Translations under genes and position numbers: made by a program
Shown: positions 29,775 through 40,314 of the stretch, in pieces
Position numbering within the stretch: the stretch's first letter is position 1
Layout of the letters: each line of letters begins with the position of its first letter
Notes under the pieces: generated by a model
Told to the model about the DNA's origin: nothing
What the model saw: the letters and a program-made list of their open reading frames with translations, nothing else
The model's database searches: none
Assembly (NCBI GenBank): GCA_039815185.1
Contig: JBCBZT010000014.1
Span: 64,001-128,000 of the forward strand
Direction of reading: 5' to 3'
Origin: Cyanobacteria bacterium P01_A01_bin.123
GTDB lineage: Bacteria; Cyanobacteriota; Cyanobacteriia; Phormidesmidales; Phormidesmidaceae
Length of the DNA stretch: 64,000 nt

Positions 29775-30558
29775 AGGTCAACTGATAGCGATAGAGCGCT
29801 ACCGGACGATTTAAGGCTTTGAAATAGTCTGGATCTCGGGAAGATAGATAAATTGCCGTGACTTGATTGGCTGTAATCACGGCCTCGTTATCCTCTTCCA
29901 CCTGAGAGTAAGCTGTCGTTGTTTCCACTTCGTTCAAGAAGGGCTGGGTAGTACCTCGAAACACTTGCTGAAATATTTCTGAGGTAACAAATTTATCCGC
30001 TGAGGGCGACTCTGTGGCTCGAGCGGTGATGGTGGAAACCAACTGGCGATCGCCCCTTAAAATCGTAATCTGACGGTTAGGATTATCCGGGTCAACCTTA
30101 ACCGCTTTGACAGCCTCGTCTCCCAAATAGGCTCGTGCTAAACTCAGCCCGTTGTAGGCTCGGTCTGAAACTATCTCTGGTGCAGACTGCTTGAGCTGGG
30201 GCAAAAATCGATTGAAATGACGCGGAGTTGCCGGGACAAACTTGACTAAGCAATCAACTGGACGGTTCAAGTATTGACGATTGCCTTCAAAGCCAGGCGT
30301 AATGATTTCTGGAGCTAAAGGCGCAACCATATCTATCAACACTGTGCGCATTTTCCAGGTTCCCGCCATCCAAGTAGGATAGGCCAAATCGCCCTCGGCC
30401 ACATCAACTGGAGGTTTGCCCTCCCATTGGGGGAATTGGACCAAGCGATCGCTGAGGTCTCCAGCCCTAGCTTCACCACTGCAAAAGAGCCATACTAGCA
30501 GCAACAGCGTAATCAAAAAAAGTTTGCGTCGAATGCGTTTGGGCTGCCAACGGGACAT
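29746..30558 (-). CDS. Conserved cyanobacterial exported protein (DUF6816-like)
   Basis: Signal peptide; 'GDLAYPTWMAGTW', 'DRAYN', 'NEVETTTAY'. Confidence 0.65.
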   Translation of the reverse strand: MSRWQPKRIRRKLFLITLLLLVWLFCSGEARAGDLSDRLVQFPQWEGKPPVDVAEGDLAYPTWMAGTWKMRTVLIDMVAPLAPEIITPGFEGNRQYLNRPVDCLVKFVPATPRHFNRFLPQLKQSAPEIVSDRAYNGLSLARAYLGDEAVKAVKVDPDNPNRQITILRGDRQLVSTITARATESPSADKFVTSEIFQQVFRGTTQPFLNEVETTTAYSQVEEDNEAVITANQVTAIYLSSRDPDYFKALNRPVALYRYQLTFTPKVAEHG

Positions 30559-30592
30559 AGTTATCGTTTAAGGGATGTCTCAAATCAATTTT

Positions 30593-31297
30593 TCAAGCTT
30601 TTTTTTCTGTGCTGAGCCTGTGCTCAGATTTTGGATACATTACTCGGAATAACGTTTGCTCGCATATACCCCAGTAATAGATACATACATTGAGGATAGC
30701 CAGCATTTTCGTACCATCTTCTAACAAAGCAGGTGTTCCCTTACCGGGGAGTTTAGCAACATCTGAAATGCCTGAAATAATTAGCAGCACTAGTGCAATG
30801 AGAAGTAAAATATAAGGTGTTGACAATAAAATTTTTCGATAAATCCACCCATATGCGACAACTGAAATTCCATAGGTTAGATATGAAATTAGCTTGGGGA
30901 CACTTAGGAAAACTTTAAATATCAGTGTCAACCTAAATAAGTCGTCAGCCAAAAAAATGGTAAGAAGAATTGCTGAAGACAAAATGAATCTCTTATAAAT
31001 ACTCCTGACTTTGTGAGAACGTAAAAACAGATATGTAAACCAACAGATACCAACGGCTACACACCAGAAAAAATCAGATATACCAGTAAACAAGCCATAA
31101 AAAGGAAATGTATCTGAGAAAAAATCTGAAAATAACGTGTTGATAATATAGCCACGTTTTCCACCTCCAAGTTTCGCGTAAATGCCGAGAAACATGAAAG
31201 TTGAGAGAAAGAAAAGATTTAAAAGACTAAAAGGAAGACTAGTTCTTAAAAAAAGAATACTTTCACGAATACCAAAGGTTTTGGATAAAAAAAACAT
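30593..31297 (-). CDS. Hypothetical polytopic membrane protein (AT-rich)
   Basis: About 6 hydrophobic segments with 'ADD' and 'ED.K' motifs; TTG start uncertain. Confidence 0.65.
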   Translation of the reverse strand: MFFLSKTFGIRESILFLRTSLPFSLLNLFFLSTFMFLGIYAKLGGGKRGYIINTLFSDFFSDTFPFYGLFTGISDFFWCVAVGICWFTYLFLRSHKVRSIYKRFILSSAILLTIFLADDLFRLTLIFKVFLSVPKLISYLTYGISVVAYGWIYRKILLSTPYILLLIALVLLIISGISDVAKLPGKGTPALLEDGTKMLAILNVCIYYWGICEQTLFRVMYPKSEHRLSTEKKA

Positions 31298-31503
31298 TGA
31301 CTTACATACTCTCGTAAAAGAAAACCACCCTACATATATGTAAAATCTAGAATCCTGTTCAAACCAACCAAATATTAACGAATTTTGAAATTTTAGGACG
31401 ACAAGCCTAGACTAGGAGGCTAGCTAGACCAGTAAGGAGAAAGTATCAAAATCTATCAAGCCTTAAACGGCTATATTAGTCTGTAGATATATATAAATCA
31501 CAA

Positions 31504-32190
31504 CTAGTATTGATAATTCAGAAGCCCAATTTCACGATGGCAAATCTCTTCAATCATCGATTGTGATTCTTTGCTTAAGATTTGCTTGTAGTTTAGATTC
31601 TTGGGACGATTATTATACTTTGTCTTTGGGATATTAAGAGCGCTAGGCAGACCTAAAATTTTGGAGACTTTCTCCAGTTCATAATCTAGGTCTTCAAATC
31701 GAGCGATGTAGTCTACGGCTATTTCACCTAAAATACTGTAAATTCCAAAGTTGGAAATCTTATTTGAATCTTCACGTTGTAAAAAGCTACATAGACTCGG
31801 AGGTTCAGACAAGCCTGCGGTCTTCCAGTAGTACCATGATACAGCTTTATCCCACGGATTTCGTTCAAAGCAGAATTTAAAGTAATTATTCCATACTGAT
31901 TGAGGAATAGTAGCCCGGACATCTTGGGCTGTTGTATGGTTGACATACTGGATACGGCTTCTTGTTTTCAAAAGCTTTAGCCAAGCATAGAAGTGGTAGT
32001 TTCGGATTGATGGAATATAGTTTTGTTTGCCAAGACCTGTATGGGCGTGGCGAATTTTTTCATCTTTGGGCACGAGAGGAGCAAGAACATCTTTTCTCTC
32101 ACAATGATGAGATAAGCCAATTTCTATACTTGTTCCAGCTGTTTTTCGGGTCTTGAGAAAGATAAATTTATACTTGTGGCAGATGATCAT
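31504..32190 (-). CDS. Sulfotransferase (Sulfotransfer_2 / carbohydrate O-sulfotransferase-like)
   Basis: 5'-PSB 'FLKTRKTAGTS', 3'-PB 'RNPWDKAVSWY', 'DYIARFEDL'. Confidence 0.85.
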   Translation of the reverse strand: MIICHKYKFIFLKTRKTAGTSIEIGLSHHCERKDVLAPLVPKDEKIRHAHTGLGKQNYIPSIRNYHFYAWLKLLKTRSRIQYVNHTTAQDVRATIPQSVWNNYFKFCFERNPWDKAVSWYYWKTAGLSEPPSLCSFLQREDSNKISNFGIYSILGEIAVDYIARFEDLDYELEKVSKILGLPSALNIPKTKYNNRPKNLNYKQILSKESQSMIEEICHREIGLLNYQY

Positions 32191-32326
32191 TTTAATAACC
32201 CTGATTCCTAACTTTAGAAGCTGTGATCAAATCAACTCGAGACTTGGAGCGTGAAGCTGCTTAATTGAATTAGTGAGTTGAAACAGACTCGCGAAAGGTT
32301 GTAGTGAATCCGAATATTTCTGCTTT

Positions 32327-33181
32327 TTAGTACAAAAACCAATCTGAAATATCTAAGTTGTACTCGCTCTCAAGCCTAACTAGATCATCACTCAAAGCAT
32401 CAAGTATAAATTTCTTCTGGACTTCAGTTAGAGGAGAAACAGTCTTGCTGTCATTGAGCAGTGGCTTAGCCAATACACCCCGAACTTTATTTTTAAGAGG
32501 ATCTGGTGCCAAGTTCTTCAACGGTTTCCAGTAACGTGAGTTCCTTAGTAAATGCCAGATTGTATCAGTTCTGTAGGAATTCTCAGAGTTATGTACCTTA
32601 CCGAGAGAAAATTTGAAAGATGAATCTAGGTCTAGGAAGTTGCAAACATTCTCCATCACAATACTAGGCTTATCCCTAAGATCCTCAGTTTTCAGGAGAA
32701 GAATATTTTCAAGAGAAAAACCATCGACAAATTTATCGACTATTACAGCATATCTAGCACGTTCAATTACCTCCGCAGGAACACTCGTCGGTGTCTCTTT
32801 TTTTAGGAATTCAGAATACCAACCCTGATAGGTACCATGCCTCCTCATTGACTCGATCTTCTGTACAGGATTTCTCAGAAGATAGATAAATTTAAATTCT
32901 GACTCTATAGTTTTTATGCGCTGAATAACCGTTTCTACTGCCAGTAAAGAATTAGTATAGCTAGGAGATGCTTCTAAAGCTGTCAAATGTTTATCCGGAT
33001 CCCACTCCCATAAATCTCTATAATACTCAATTCCCTTAGTCCATTGATGATCCTTGGAAAAGAAATTGGTTTCTTTGATTTTAGAAACTGAGATTTGTGG
33101 ATGTTGAGATAAATACGAAAATAAACTTGTTGTTCCTCCCTTTTGAGTACCTATAATTATACTAAGATTATTTATCTCCAT
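32327..33181 (-). CDS. PAPS-dependent sulfotransferase (heparan-sulfate-ST-like)
   Basis: 'IIGTQKGGTTSL', 'KETNFF', 'EASPSY', 'LRNPVQKIES'. Confidence 0.9.
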   Translation of the reverse strand: MEINNLSIIIGTQKGGTTSLFSYLSQHPQISVSKIKETNFFSKDHQWTKGIEYYRDLWEWDPDKHLTALEASPSYTNSLLAVETVIQRIKTIESEFKFIYLLRNPVQKIESMRRHGTYQGWYSEFLKKETPTSVPAEVIERARYAVIVDKFVDGFSLENILLLKTEDLRDKPSIVMENVCNFLDLDSSFKFSLGKVHNSENSYRTDTIWHLLRNSRYWKPLKNLAPDPLKNKVRGVLAKPLLNDSKTVSPLTEVQKKFILDALSDDLVRLESEYNLDISDWFLY

Positions 33182-33372
33182 AGCTATTCCCAGAAATGAA
33201 AGTCCAGTAGACGACTAACTCCGAAAGATGTTTTAAGAACTCTCTGAACTGAATTTGGTTATCTAAGTCATCCAAGAATCAAGATAAAACTCTTCTTTAG
33301 ACTTCTAGATCCAAAAAAAAGTTAAAGTTTTAAATTTCCTTTGGCTTTACTGGAGATTCAACAGGAACAAAA

Positions 33373-34272
33373 TCAGGATCCGCCTACTCTTTCTTCTCGG
33401 AAGGCACTAATTTCTGCTTTAGAATAAAAATGATTAACGTATTTAGACAAATACATTTTGTCTAAATAGCTTTCAGGAAGTGAAAGGGTTTTCTTAAATA
33501 ACTTGTAACATTGAGCATAGCTTTTATCTGCCCCAATGTTCTCAGACTTTACTTCAAAGTCCTTGATTCCTAAAAAAATGTTGAATGCTTCCGCTACTAC
33601 TTGGTTGAGAACTTCTAATTTTAATATTAAAACATCTGCTTGCTCACCTTCGCATATCTGATACCCTCTTTCCATGTCAAAGGGAATTGAAAAAACATCG
33701 ATCCCGAAAGTTGGCTTCATTTCTAAATCAAACCAGCTTAATGGTACATCATGGTATGAGAACTCTTCTAAAAAAAGCCTTTTCAATTCATCAAGTATAG
33801 ACTCCATATTATCTGTTTTGATTTTCTCTCTTAAAGAGAAACCAAATAGATACTCAAGATTTTGAAAGAAACTAGATATATTCTTAGCCACTGGATCTCT
33901 GGTAAGAGTAATGACCTTTAGCTTTTCTCTCTTTGATTGTTTTAGATATCTCCTGATATAAAAGCTATGTATGAGTGGGGTATGAATAGCCTGTATTCGA
34001 GAATAGTTTTCTCTATAAAAGCCTTCACTTTTATGGAGGCCTGGATCAGATAAATAATGAGTATGATATATGGAATATTTGTCTGGATCCGGGTTGAGGG
34101 TTTTTAATGATTCATATATAGCTGTGGAAGCGACTTTTCCCATTTGATGAACAACTATGGGCTGCTTGTTAGTTGAACTATCTAAGAATAATACTTTTAG
34201 ATGATGATATGCTCTCGCAAAATGGTAATTGCTTCTCAGTATTTTCTGAAAGAGTATTTTAGGTGATTCCAT
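33373..34272 (-). CDS. Sulfotransferase-like putative capsular polysaccharide synthesis protein
   Basis: 'HQMGKVAST' and 'TRDPVAKNISSFFQ' resemble the PSB and PB loops. Confidence 0.7.
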   Translation of the reverse strand: MESPKILFQKILRSNYHFARAYHHLKVLFLDSSTNKQPIVVHQMGKVASTAIYESLKTLNPDPDKYSIYHTHYLSDPGLHKSEGFYRENYSRIQAIHTPLIHSFYIRRYLKQSKREKLKVITLTRDPVAKNISSFFQNLEYLFGFSLREKIKTDNMESILDELKRLFLEEFSYHDVPLSWFDLEMKPTFGIDVFSIPFDMERGYQICEGEQADVLILKLEVLNQVVAEAFNIFLGIKDFEVKSENIGADKSYAQCYKLFKKTLSLPESYLDKMYLSKYVNHFYSKAEISAFREERVGGS

Positions 34273-34292: not shown

Positions 34293-35477
34293 CTAATTCT
34301 CAAAGAAAAATTTTCGACAAATTTCTTCTAAGTTTGCATTAAATCGAGAAATCTCAAAGTGTTTGCAAACTTCTTGCCTCAGCCACTCAGGATTGTACAA
34401 GTTTTGGTTAGCATAGGTACCTTGGAGGATTTCGATCAGCTTAGCTGCGATCGCAGCTTCGTCATCTGGATCGACTAAGCAGCCTAGCTTACCGTTGAGG
34501 AGGGGATCAACTGAACCATCTTGGTTCCCGGCTAGAACAAGTCTACCCGATGCTAAAGCTTCAAGGTAGACAATGCCAAACCCTTCTCCCTTGCTGGGCA
34601 TGGCAAAAACATCACATAGACTGTAGTAGTCCGGTAATTCTTCGTCAGGCACAAACCCCGTTAAAGTAACGCAATCCTGCAAGTTAAGTTCGGCAATCAT
34701 TGCTTCAATTCGGGGTCGATCGTCACCTTTTCCCACTAGAACATAATGGACATCTGGAACCTGTTGGCGAATTTTGGGCAACATCCGCAAAATCTTGTCG
34801 TACCCCTTGTAGTGGGCGAATCCTTGTAGGCGAGTGACGGTTAAGATAATGGGTTGCTCTGGTTTTAGGTTATGACGATCAAGGAGATAGGTAGGTTTGG
34901 GTTGCAGCTTAAACCGAGCAGGATCAAACGTATTCGGCAATACACACATTTGATCGGGGTTGAGATACCCCTCGGCGAGCACGCGATCGCGCGTGTACTG
35001 ACTAACCGCGATTACCCGATCTGCGCCCTGTAAGGCTTTCTGATAGGCGGTATTTTTGATATCCCATGCTTCTATGCCATGCAAAACCACCCAATAGGGA
35101 ATACCTAAGCGTTGGTAGAGCTTATGGCAAAGGACAACGTAGTAATTAATTTCGGTCGTGACAATGAGGGCTGGGCGATAGATTAAGGCATTTACTAAAA
35201 TCGTGGCGGCTGATAAGAGGGTTCGAAACCGTCGCCGCCAGCCGTTAGTGTCGCAGACCCGCTCGCCAAACGCAAAGAAGCGAGTCTGCGGCAAAAAGGA
35301 GAAGTCACTGACAGCATCGGAAGTAGACCGCTCATACTTGAGAAACACGCTATAACGTGCATCTGGGTACACCTTCTGGATTCCTTGTAAAACCAAGGCA
35401 GAATAGACCTGCACGCCGCCTTTGAATCCAAAAAAATTGGGCGCTAGGACGAAAAAGTGGTTGGGTGATGCTGTCAT
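34293..35477 (-). CDS. Glycosyltransferase family 4
   Basis: 'GGVQ', 'HGIEAW', 'YKGYD', 'PSKGEGFGIVYLEALASG'. Confidence 0.92.
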   Translation of the reverse strand: MTASPNHFFVLAPNFFGFKGGVQVYSALVLQGIQKVYPDARYSVFLKYERSTSDAVSDFSFLPQTRFFAFGERVCDTNGWRRRFRTLLSAATILVNALIYRPALIVTTEINYYVVLCHKLYQRLGIPYWVVLHGIEAWDIKNTAYQKALQGADRVIAVSQYTRDRVLAEGYLNPDQMCVLPNTFDPARFKLQPKPTYLLDRHNLKPEQPIILTVTRLQGFAHYKGYDKILRMLPKIRQQVPDVHYVLVGKGDDRPRIEAMIAELNLQDCVTLTGFVPDEELPDYYSLCDVFAMPSKGEGFGIVYLEALASGRLVLAGNQDGSVDPLLNGKLGCLVDPDDEAAIAAKLIEILQGTYANQNLYNPEWLRQEVCKHFEISRFNANLEEICRKFFFEN

Positions 35478-37188: not shown

Positions 37189-37443
37189 AATTATCTCCTT
37201 ATCATTTACTCAAATTCAGTCAACGGGGTTTATTGAGACTTTTTGGAAAGGGGGAGGTGGCATCTTTCCCAACTCAACTTCACGCTCATGCTATAGTCTA
37301 GTAATTTTTAAGTTGGTTGAGCCACACTACTAATTAAATCTGCAGCAGTCTTCATACTTTCTGTGCTGCTACATTAATCTTACAAAAATCTCTTCAGAGG
37401 ATTTTCACTACTTATAGACAGATGCTCAAGATTGACCTCGACT

Positions 37444-39381
37444 TCAATCATGTTTAGCATCCATTGGTCGCGGTTTCGAGAGCTGGAAACCTTGGGCGTA
37501 GGCGATTCCCAAAGTTTTCACATGACTTAAAACGGCTGGGGTTTCAACGCCTTTTGCAATCATAGAAAGATCCACGCCACTGTGTTTTCTCATCATCTCC
37601 TGAAATGTTTTAAAACCATTGGAAATTTCATCTGTAGACTTCGCCAGGCAGATATTGAACTTGACGAAGCTAACAGGGTAATTCTTCAGCAAGTCGCTGC
37701 AATTTCGATGTACCCCAAAATTATCAATAATTAGTTGACAACCTAGTTCATTTAATCCATTGGCAAACTTTGTAACTTCTGGAAAGTACTCAACGGCGAT
37801 CGATTCTGAAACTTCAAAACACAACTGATCTGCACGAAGATTTGACTGGGTTAAACACTCAGCAACAAAATCTATAAATTGACGATCGCAAACACTAGCC
37901 CGAGACAGATTAAAGGAATGGATGTTGGGCAAATTTTGAGACTGAGATGGCTGAGTTGTTAAGGCATGAGTTTTAAGAAAGCGACGTAATACCCATCTAT
38001 CTAAAGTGCGTGCTAGTCCATAATGCTCAATGACAGGCATAAATTCCCTTGGATTGCCAGGTGTGTCACCACCTAATCGCACAAATACTTCTTGCTGGGC
38101 CAGGGGATGCTCCAAATGCTCAATAGCGATAACGGGTTGTTGATAAAGTTGAAACTGATCTTGCTCAAATCCTGCGGTGATGCGCTTCAGCCAAAGGTCT
38201 TGATCAGGAATAGCTCGAATGCTTTGGTTCTGTAGAAAGTCTTGATAGGTTTTCTTCAACAGGAAGAAAGGGCTGACTACGGAACTGGTTAAGTGCTCTC
38301 GTTCACAGGCGATAACCCAATTATCCGTTGATGGGGTGCCGTGTCTAACCCAATGCAGCGCAAGCCTGCGCAAATCATTGGCGATGTAAGCTGGCACCAG
38401 CAGCGGACGTTTCCAATCGGTGATGCCTAACATACGGATATAAAACCGACTCAGCCCAATACATCGAAGTAACGTTTTGAGATAATCAAGCTGTAATCGG
38501 CTATTGGGAATTAGATGCTCAACCACCATGTCTGGGTTGTACCAAACTTCCCAGCCTCCTTTTTGGATGTGAAGGGCTGCTTCCAAATCTTCGCTGGCTA
38601 ATCCTGCCCCTTTGCCCTTGTTATCCAAAAACAGCTTTTCAGGCACTGACGCTAGCCAAGCCTTACGCCTAACTGCCAATCCGGCTCCAGGAGGCAAGAT
38701 CTTAGTCTTAGGTTCGTATCGATGGGGTTGGCTACCCCGCTCAACAATGGCTAAATAGGAGGCTATTTTTTGGAATCCTTCCGGGGGTGAGCCTTCAAAC
38801 TTGCCGTGAATTTGACTACCAAAGGCACCCGCTTTGGGATAATGTTGACTGAACTCAAATGCATTTTTGACCCAGTCATGGGCGGGTAGGTTGTCATCAT
38901 CTAAAAATGCGACCAATTCACCCTGAGCTAACTGAATTGCATGCTGGCGGGCGTGAGCGGCACCCTGCTCAGCCGCGAAACCATACCTCAAAGTGCAACT
39001 TCTAATCCACTCCTGCTGATAAGCTTGCACAACATCAGCAGTGGCATCAGTACTGTTGTTGTCACAGACAATCACTTCCCAGGAAATGTCATCAATGCCA
39101 GTTTGCGATCGCAGCCGATCTAAGACCAACGGTAGCCGTTTTGCACCGTTGTAGGTTGGGATGGCTACAGTAATATCCATAATCTGGCGTTGTTCCTTGG
39201 CCGCAGGTTCAGTTTGAGCGAACTGGGTAGCCGCGAAGGGACTATCTGTACTAGTTGATGCTGTATCAATTGATTCGGGTGCGATTTGGGAAACCATGGA
39301 AGGGGTGACCATCCTGCCTCTGTTAGCGGCAATGAACGCCATGAAAGTCAAATCAGAAACCAAACTATTTGCATTTTTCAA
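37444..39381 (-). CDS. hpsE: HpsE-like GT2 glycosyltransferase fused to a degenerate EAL domain (true start may be ATG 39297 or 39180)
   Basis: 'DITVAIPTYNGAKRLP', 'DNNSTD', DxD-like 'FLDDDN', 'PPGAGL', 'SEDLE'; C-terminal 'LYQQP..EVFVRL', 'FNLS', 'FEVSE', 'IDNFG', 'AKGVET', 'QGFQLSKP'. Confidence 0.82.
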   Translation of the reverse strand: MKNANSLVSDLTFMAFIAANRGRMVTPSMVSQIAPESIDTASTSTDSPFAATQFAQTEPAAKEQRQIMDITVAIPTYNGAKRLPLVLDRLRSQTGIDDISWEVIVCDNNSTDATADVVQAYQQEWIRSCTLRYGFAAEQGAAHARQHAIQLAQGELVAFLDDDNLPAHDWVKNAFEFSQHYPKAGAFGSQIHGKFEGSPPEGFQKIASYLAIVERGSQPHRYEPKTKILPPGAGLAVRRKAWLASVPEKLFLDNKGKGAGLASEDLEAALHIQKGGWEVWYNPDMVVEHLIPNSRLQLDYLKTLLRCIGLSRFYIRMLGITDWKRPLLVPAYIANDLRRLALHWVRHGTPSTDNWVIACEREHLTSSVVSPFFLLKKTYQDFLQNQSIRAIPDQDLWLKRITAGFEQDQFQLYQQPVIAIEHLEHPLAQQEVFVRLGGDTPGNPREFMPVIEHYGLARTLDRWVLRRFLKTHALTTQPSQSQNLPNIHSFNLSRASVCDRQFIDFVAECLTQSNLRADQLCFEVSESIAVEYFPEVTKFANGLNELGCQLIIDNFGVHRNCSDLLKNYPVSFVKFNICLAKSTDEISNGFKTFQEMMRKHSGVDLSMIAKGVETPAVLSHVKTLGIAYAQGFQLSKPRPMDAKHD

Positions 39382-39863: not shown

Positions 39864-39955
39864 AAGAGGGAAATGACAGGCTGGATGCGGCTAGGGGTTA
39901 GCGAAGAACGAGGGCGAGAGTTAACTATTTCTTGGCTAAACTGCTGAAACAATGA

Positions 39956-39975
39956 TGTTGTCATCGTTGACAACA
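39956..39975. promoter_or_regulatory. Perfect 8-4-8 inverted repeat, candidate operator
   Basis: TGTTGTCA-TCGT-TGACAACA in the divergent hpsE / histidine kinase intergenic region. Confidence 0.4.
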
Positions 39976-40314
39976 CATCGTTATTTTTATACTGGAAATG
40001 TTTAGATCTATGTTCTAGATCTTATGTCTCTTAGAAAGACTGTTTTGCCTGGCTGACGTAAACTTATCGATGTCTATCCCAAAGACGTAATATCAATCCC
40101 TGCCTCTCAAGCAATTGATATCCCAAAATCGGAGCTTAACCCAACTTTAACACTTCACTAAAAAGGTGTCTGAGATAACTTTTTAAAATACGCAGGTTCT
40201 TGGAGTTTTTGATCTGGAGGTTATTCGCAGTTAATCATTCGGATTAAACCTATCATGTCCTCTAAGGGGTGTCTCGCGGTTGATGGTTGTGTGTCTGTAG
40301 TCAGGTTGCTGTAA

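Follow-up and report, generated by a model that had tools for sequence, protein, structure and literature searches.

An HpsE-family glycosyltransferase fused to a degenerate EAL domain in cyanobacteria, a candidate for control by cyclic di-GMP

The fused gene and its glycosyltransferase domain

The window analysed here is a stretch of 64,000 nucleotides from contig JBCBZT010000014.1 of Cyanobacteria bacterium P01_A01_bin.123. At 37444..39381 on its minus strand, which also carries the protein features and the downstream genes described below, lies a stop-free open reading frame (ORF) of 645 residues, counted from a TTG codon, that joins a family 2 glycosyltransferase (GT2) of the HpsE family to a degenerate EAL domain. 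The true start may be a later ATG, such as M24 or M68; the protein in the database cluster of the fusion (P0002) has 622 residues, and the glycosyltransferase (GT) domain starts at M68. The HpsE model NF038302 covers residues 68-374 (38260..39180) over its full length (1-307) with 442.2 bits against a cut-off of 300. A domain scan placed PF00535 at residues 71-200 and the EAL family PF00563 at residues 402-637 (37471..38178; E 7.5e-41). The initial annotation of this DNA had described one uninterrupted GT2-EAL ORF with the EAL part at about 37460-38200, and the stop-free frame, the NF038302 and PF00563 matches and the position of the latter bear this out. All the motifs it had named are present: YQQP (413-416), EVFVR with the spacing E-x3-R (431-435), NLS (491-493), EVSE (523-526), DNFG (553-556), KFN (574-576), AKGVE (609-613) and QGF (630-632).

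The whole stretch is spanned by single contigs in three of four sequencing runs (X2, X3 and X5) and is in pieces in the fourth (X8). X2 and X3 belong to the study that may be the source of the window; X5 comes from another study, and its contig shows 118 differences from the window, with a sole indel at 37402, outside the fusion ORF. Both PF00535 and PF00563 were detected in 116 of the best 120 homologues, including the window's own cluster, the other four being GT-GT tandems. A read-through artefact absent from relatives, which had been considered at the outset, is therefore not what the spanning contigs and the homologues reveal.

The motifs expected of an active GT-A enzyme are intact. DDD at residues 161-163 (38893..38901), the DxD metal/donor motif, is invariant in all 116 fusions, as is SED at 263-265 (38587..38595). 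D265 of SED, which we take to be the likely catalytic base, is kept in 123 of 124 non-redundant fusions (199 fused sequences reduced at <90% identity; counts out of 124 refer to this set throughout). DNNS at 107-110 (39052..39063), presumably the nucleotide-sugar-binding loop of GT-A enzymes, is predicted to contact helix 2 of the EAL domain. A structure search with the predicted model matched the GT fold to WrtF, TarS and other GT-A enzymes (Z ~22), and the ratio of nonsynonymous to synonymous substitution rates (dN/dS) of the domain is ~0.07 in close pairs. No 19-residue window indicative of a transmembrane span exceeds a hydropathy of 1.3 in the fusion protein, QxxRW is absent from the ORF sequence, and the domain scan gave no PilZ match. 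QxxRW is a signature of processive GTs (PMC8669469; this and the other papers are cited from excerpts of their text). Because DDD and SED are intact and both a membrane-span window and QxxRW are missing, the sequence suggests that the fused GT is likely an active, non-processive enzyme, and likely cytoplasmic or membrane-peripheral. In one fusion, from Dapis sp. (L172:2992-4812), SED is replaced by SEN and the flank shows no gene downstream; this is possibly a GT-dead copy.

The EAL domain and its predicted contact with the glycosyltransferase

The EAL domain (RbdA-like subfamily) combines a retained pocket with lost catalytic residues. The pocket set of Q415, E431, R435, D461, N491, K574, Q630 and G631 is retained in 122/124 fusions, and the full catalytic set of E431, N491, E523, D553, D554, K574, E610 and Q630 is present together in 0/124. 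In the ExLxR motif (E431-x3-R435, 38077..38091) E and R are each kept in 123/124; D461 of the DRW motif (37999..38001), on the same helix 2 that forms the predicted GT interface, is invariant (124/124); and in QG(F/Y) at 630-632 (37486..37494) Q is kept in 124/124 and G in 123/124. Retention of E431, N491, D553, K574 and Q630 is 123-124/124, and that of E523 is 117/124. K610 (37552..37554) replaces the catalytic Glu of ExxE, with K in 108/124 and E in 3/124. In DNFG at 553-556 (37714..37725) D553 is kept in 123/124, and loop 6, DFG(T/A)GYSS, is eroded: DFG at 554-556 is found in 0/116 fusions, and the window protein reads NFGVHRNC. Conservation at ≥90% in 133 intact relatives marks out 66 positions, of which the fusions keep 26 and have lost 40; the relatives had been selected for ten key residues, which are conserved there by construction. 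The lost positions include loop 6 and the following helix, and among them are F555, G556, G558, S560, S561, D576, G577 and E610.

We take E431, N491, E523 and D553 to be metal-1 ligands, K574 to be the catalytic Lys, and Q415, F447, D461, E613 and Y632 to be c-di-GMP (cyclic di-GMP) contacts in EAL structures. By these roles, the residues first listed as ligand contacts are indeed conserved, but E431, N491, E523 and D553 would be metal ligands and not merely contacts. Among the catalytic losses listed with them, the change of the general base from AEGVE to AKGVE (K610) holds and, together with the loss of loop 6, is a family-wide lesion. DDFG to DNFG is present in the window, but N554 is particular to this strain (D in 66/124), and in KID to KFN the D is lost but K574 is retained (123/124). 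The residue roles are only partly backed by the excerpts of PMC12943098, PMC3527489 and PMC3032553. In TBD1265, the E703A change (E610-equivalent) abolishes activity, and loop 6 is essential for activity (PMC12943098).

The catalytic residues were lost by different routes in different lineages. In the window's order the loss is mostly E610K, and in Laspinema, Oscillatoria, Okeania, Dapis and Xenococcaceae E523 is changed to C, G or S and D554 to G, H, K or Q, while the pocket stays. E610 is retained in three of the eight fusions outside the order, with E523 and D554 lost there. Substitution rates indicate that the domain is under purifying selection: dN/dS is 0.16-0.32 (median 0.17) in the 8 of 820 pairs with usable dS, pairs that are mutually non-independent. 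The polar pocket residues Q415, E431, R435, D461, N491, K574 and Q630 are among the slowest EAL sites, and the EAL surface beyond the pocket and the GT-facing patch is highly variable (rates of 2.3-2.5 in loop 6 and beta6-alpha6). The domain has the fold and the conserved ExLxR and pocket, with the residues of catalysis lost, which are the sequence criteria of a receptor of the FimX/LapD kind. On these grounds it is likely that c-di-GMP is bound by the EAL domain and not destroyed. The original idea of a degenerate, ligand-binding EAL domain on a polysaccharide GT is thus strengthened by conservation, selection and two structure predictions, with binding itself a prediction.

The best PDB match, by sequence and by structure, is RbdA (PA0861; 8PPS and 5XGE; Z 25.9, root-mean-square deviation 2.9, 245 residues aligned), followed by FimX. 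PAS-GGDEF-EAL phosphodiesterases (PDEs) of the RbdA type keep DDFGSGMSS and the general-base Glu, unlike the fusion. FimX (Z 24-25) and LapD (Z 21.5-22.5) share the EAL fold, the retained ExLxR arginine and the loss of catalysis, but the fusion is without GGDEF, PAS or membrane part, and its output domain is an enzyme in the same chain. LapD has Lys in place of a metal-binding Glu (KVL; PMC3032553), whereas the Lys of the fusion is at the general-base site; FimX keeps 4 of 10 conserved residues (PMC3527489), and the fusion retains more metal ligands.

The general-base E-to-K change recurs outside the fusion, in three unfused GGDEF-EAL proteins (P0163, P0178 and P0222), two of which also have DN for DD. 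The genome of the window encodes two more degenerate EAL domains (L226:190-1329, on contig C113, and C82:117260-117937 of genome G000), with K or R at the general base and Y or W for the ExLxR arginine; the former consists of an EAL domain and ~130 residues without a Pfam match.

AlphaFold2, run on both domains with a 116-row alignment, gave a predicted local distance difference test (pLDDT) of 90.8 and a predicted template modelling score (pTM) of 0.91, with a continuous helix predicted to run from GT to EAL at residues 355-389 (38215..38319). The pTM suggests a fixed domain orientation. The GT and EAL domains were also folded as separate chains, with c-di-GMP included but unscored; the complex of GT, c-di-GMP and EAL scored 0.74 compared to 0.25 for the best control. 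Of the solved pairs 116 of 157 attained the score mark, as did 2 of 215 mismatched pairs, a calibration that is only rough when a ligand is included. Contact agreement between runs was at least 93%, and partner pLDDT at least 82. In this model, helix 1 (398-406) and helix 2 (454-466) of the EAL domain are predicted to pack on the DNNS loop (107-111) and on residues 133-139 (YGFAAEQ, including A136; 38965..38985), the whole predicted interface comprising GT residues 107, 109-111, 115-116 and 133-139 and EAL residues 398-406, 454-466, 501 and 505. Since helix 2 bears both the interface and D461, and DNNS is the donor loop, the path from the pocket to the donor site would be short. No GT-EAL complex was among the matches listed in the PDB searches.

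Two comparisons of residues bear on this predicted contact. In the tree set, all 27 fused HpsE-family GTs have A or V at position 136, and all 87 unfused ones have E; E136 to A/V, together with Y187F and V286/V287, had been picked as fusion-specific from fused and unfused GTs before the complex was modelled. On the EAL side of the interface, conservation in fusions exceeds that in intact relatives (+0.16, compared to -0.14 for all sites; 0/10000 random sets).

Distribution, ancestry and genomic setting

The fusion is common in one order and patchy elsewhere. In the window's order it was found in at least 59 of 173 genomes (57 two-domain matches and 2 fused on inspection, a count that leaves out two partial and 299 weaker matches). 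A scan of named genomes gave at least 31 fusions among the best 80 of 439 loci. Eight lie outside the window's order, where the carriers include Phormidium pseudopriestleyi, Laspinema olomoucense, Oscillatoria sp. HE19RPO, Okeania sp., Dapis sp. and a Xenococcaceae genome. A sample spread evenly over the class, with three candidates scored per genome, gave a match of fusion length in 19/401 genomes; 17 of these lay where the survey of the order had also found one. Named homologues come from Leptolyngbya, Phormidesmis, Leptothoe, Romeria and Halomicronema, and the named loci include Leptolyngbya sp. PCC 6406 and PCC 7375. The view that the fusion is confined to the window's order (full-length matches in 2/401 genomes, three candidates being scored in each) was overturned by the named-genome fusions in other groups, and a reading of long relatives in G536 and G512 as GT-GT fusions was rejected, as these are GT-EAL proteins with insertions. 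Related arrangements were also seen: tandem GT2-GT2 proteins (P0010, P0011, P0031 and P0118), a frame joining hpsE- and hpsF-like genes (L098:8191-10164), and a second fusion-length copy in the Okeania genome of locus L135.

When 1.84 billion representatives were searched with the EAL profile, most matches were GGDEF-EAL proteins that have DDFGSGMS and the catalytic Glu; the latter is present in 136 of 146 non-GT matches, and some matches are cyanobacterial. A phylum search with the profile returned mostly long non-fused EAL proteins and was uninformative on the fusion. A quick tree of 79 rows groups all fused EALs into a single clade nested among GGDEF-EAL proteins (Shimodaira-Hasegawa-like approximate likelihood ratio test 98), where long-branch attraction among fast-evolving EALs is possible. 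This clade also holds the short GT-less proteins P0176 and P0210, possibly fragments. For the GT domain, FastTree suggested two separate fusion events, and IQ-TREE placed the 27 fused GTs in one clade at 86/90, a level at which a single clade is neither shown nor rejected.

Six proteins of the genome score above the HpsE cut-off, one fused and five unfused. Canonical hpsA-hpsB-hpsC-x-hpsE-hpsF-...-hpsJ loci were identified in other genomes for the trees, in which these related hps-locus genes took the place of the Nostoc punctiforme HpsE; the IQ-TREE rows were all 27 fused GTs of the FastTree set (18 of 41, and 9 from named loci), 15 unfused sisters and 12 outgroup sequences. A clade of 42 rows, of which 27 are fused and 15 unfused (99/92), contains the fused GTs and is separate from the HpsE of hps loci; both clades are represented in Okeania, Coleofasciculus, Symploca and Floridaenema. 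The fused protein is, on these trees, an HpsE paralogue and not an orthologue of the hps-locus HpsE. The NF038302 label is no proof of orthology, because the HpsF-like paralogue, and six proteins of this genome, fall under the model as well. The HpsE of N. punctiforme (Npun_F0070) is like the fused GT in NF038302 membership and in its intact DDD and SED, but the fusion has an EAL domain, belongs to a paralogous clade and is not beside hpsA-D. Just as hpsE and hpsF form a tandem in hps loci, the fusion is usually the first of a pair with an HpsF-like GT: a second HpsE-family GT lies within two genes in 24/31 fused loci, and these downstream GT partners of fusions group with the second, HpsF-like genes in the tree.

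Two parts of the initial annotation need rewording in consequence. Its HpsE-type GT stands as a match above the NF038302 cut-off, but as a member of the paralogous clade and not as the hps-locus HpsE. Its link to motility is weaker than claimed, given the separate clade, the five unfused HpsE-type proteins and the position of hpsA on another contig of the same genome (C60, the fusion being on C31). No hpsA-sized neighbour was seen in 20 fused neighbourhoods. Adjacency to hpsA is, however, a weak criterion, since hpsE lies apart from hpsA in Leptolyngbya boryana (PMC10581220), and hormogonium polysaccharide (HPS) loci are dispersed (PMC12188702). A link to gliding is unproven because the fused GT belongs to the paralogous clade and unfused HpsE-type genes coexist with it in the genome; the dispersal of HPS loci and the L. 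boryana arrangement leave room for a role, and the fused paralogue may feed gliding slime.

Downstream of the fusion lie genes for a type I phosphodiesterase/nucleotide pyrophosphatase (PF01663; 35488..37188), with a homologue downstream in 13/31 fused loci (3 kb flanks), a GT4 glycosyltransferase (34293..35477), an NKWYS putative capsular polysaccharide protein (PF10364; 33373..34272) and two sulfotransferases (PF00685, 32327..33181; PF03567, 31504..32190), all named by the domain scan. The sulfotransferase neighbours suggest that the surface glycan in this genome is sulfated. The two sulfotransferase genes and the NKWYS gene lie in a block of low guanine-plus-cytosine content at 30000-34000 (36-40%, compared to ~51%), and the genes after the fusion differ strongly between genomes. 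Upstream, cbiT and a gene of ~500 residues precede the fusion in 12 of 20 neighbourhoods (L066-L085); in the window and a congener the upstream divergent genes resemble, by eye, cobalamin methylmutase and methyltransferase genes. A palindromic hairpin (39955-39976) with a terminator-like score on both strands lies in the gap of 930 bp that precedes the fusion ORF. A promoter and terminator scan stayed at chance level (7 against 5.1 expected, and 2 against 2.7). The genome as a whole has 32 ORFs with the R.[GS]G[DE]EF motif and 27 EAL matches.

Proposed control of the glycosyltransferase and alternatives

We propose that c-di-GMP binds the EAL domain uncut and, via helix 2, alters how the GT binds its donor or turns over, a reading to which we give a probability of roughly 0.6. 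The ligand would be bound without cleavage, perhaps with one Mg on E431, N491, E523 and D553 and with K610 perhaps filling the second-metal or general-base site. It would shift helix 2 and so alter nucleotide-sugar binding or turnover at the donor loops. The GT would transfer a single sugar to a lipid-linked repeat unit, the polymer being a surface polysaccharide that is probably sulfated in this genome, and would act together with the HpsF-like GT usually encoded next to it. Other polysaccharide GTs under c-di-GMP control are the analogy on which we lean slightly towards activation over inhibition. A broader form of the proposal, for which we see even odds, is that the protein would represent a first EAL-gated GT: an RbdA-type EAL domain would have been captured once, have lost catalysis by different routes and have co-adapted with its GT (E136 to A/V in the GT; F405, E406 and T459 in the EAL), so that c-di-GMP at helix 2 would act directly on the nucleotide-sugar site of a non-processive enzyme.

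Several observations weigh against this proposal. Two genera of the window's order (53 and 14 genomes) have GT-length matches only and no fusion, and 15 unfused sister GTs in the clade of the fusion do without an EAL domain. Mean site rates of 1.56 for the EAL domain and 0.71 for the GT show that the former evolves at roughly double the pace. Retention of the metal-1 ligands and K574 in most members means that residual hydrolysis may occur. E136 is retained in 2/124 fused proteins; as the fused sequences probably share one origin, the change at this position may be an inherited mark, or it may be a purely structural fit. The interface and its conservation test are not independent, because the model used alignments of the same family.

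An EAL domain that binds c-di-GMP so as to localise or recruit the enzyme, for instance to a diguanylate cyclase, to the pilus pole or to its HpsF-like partner, with a GT contact that is only structural, would resemble FimX and BcsE. We regard this as unlikely, if less so than the other alternatives. FimX is among the nearest solved structures and acts via PilB/PilZ (PMC12564702), and unfused sister GTs exist, but no second conserved docking face is evident on an EAL surface that is elsewhere highly variable, and the predicted contact falls on the donor-binding loops. A slow or atypical enzyme (a trigger PDE), or a receptor for another ligand such as pGpG, cyclic di-AMP or cyclic GMP-AMP, is a shade less probable still. 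The retained metal ligands, K574 and Q630 (123-124/124) and E523 (117/124) would fit such a domain, as would the E610 of three members and the crystallisation of FimX-EAL with pGpG (PMC3527489). However, the three members with E610 have lost E523 and D554, the full catalytic set and DFG are found in 0/124 and 0/116 fusions, and loss by different routes argues against selection on catalysis.

We think it improbable that the EAL domain acts independently of any ligand, as a structural or inhibitory module comparable to the degenerate EAL of Escherichia coli DgcE. The NCBIfam model PRK09776, which we take to be that of DgcE/YegE, matches the domain below its cut-off, and a conserved interface with the GT is predicted, as such a module would have. 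The DgcE domain inhibits without c-di-GMP binding, but it is reported to be without binding and catalytic residues (PMC6510439), whereas here the pocket is among the slowest sites; because these slow sites are polar pocket residues, maintenance of the fold alone is an insufficient explanation. The patchiness of the fusion outside the window's order would suit chance read-through, a decaying passenger domain or an assembly artefact, to which we assign almost no weight: occurrence in at least 59/173 genomes, independent contigs, the dN/dS of 0.17 and the single EAL clade refute it.

The proposed control by bound c-di-GMP has parallels among GT2 enzymes. BgsA is reportedly a GT2 with a built-in c-di-GMP module. 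BcsA (PilZ) and NfrB (MshEN) likewise carry a GT2 and a c-di-GMP module in one chain (PMC8461298, PMC8669469). The initial analogy with BcsA therefore holds for this shared logic, but not for the architecture: the sensor of the fusion is an EAL domain, and no transmembrane helix (by hydropathy), QxxRW or PilZ is present. The predicted contact is on the donor-binding loops and not on a gating loop.

No paper on a GT2-EAL fusion was found in literature searches aimed at it or at its context, in agreement with the first impression that the architecture is uncharacterised, although it might appear in subscription journals or in supplements and their domain tables, such as Table S1 of PMC3747582. 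The term 'glycosyl' is absent from the main text of PMC3747582 and PMC10124867. Databases do annotate the architecture, under the name 'EAL domain-containing protein/glycosyl transferase'. What is new is the paralogy, the lineage-specific catalytic loss and the predicted, co-adapted interface on the donor site. In cyanobacteria, known effectors of c-di-GMP are few; excerpts of a 2023 review name the PilZ cellulose synthase XcsA as an effector and give the phototaxis receptor as unknown (PMC10124867). In L. boryana, from a different family, a diguanylate cyclase suppresses gliding and biofilm (PMC10581220).

As a soluble two-domain protein, the fusion offers a candidate connection between c-di-GMP and surface polysaccharide that can be tested directly, in cyanobacteria that form mats in marine and terrestrial settings. 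The model names residues for mutation, and the unfused sister enzymes, such as that of Coleofasciculus H7-2 (locus L136), are a natural control. If the proposal is correct, EAL would join PilZ, MshEN and the BgsA domain as a built-in GT sensor, and such control would extend from processive synthases to a likely non-processive GT. Slime or sheath synthesis in filamentous cyanobacteria would then be switched by c-di-GMP at its repeat-unit step.

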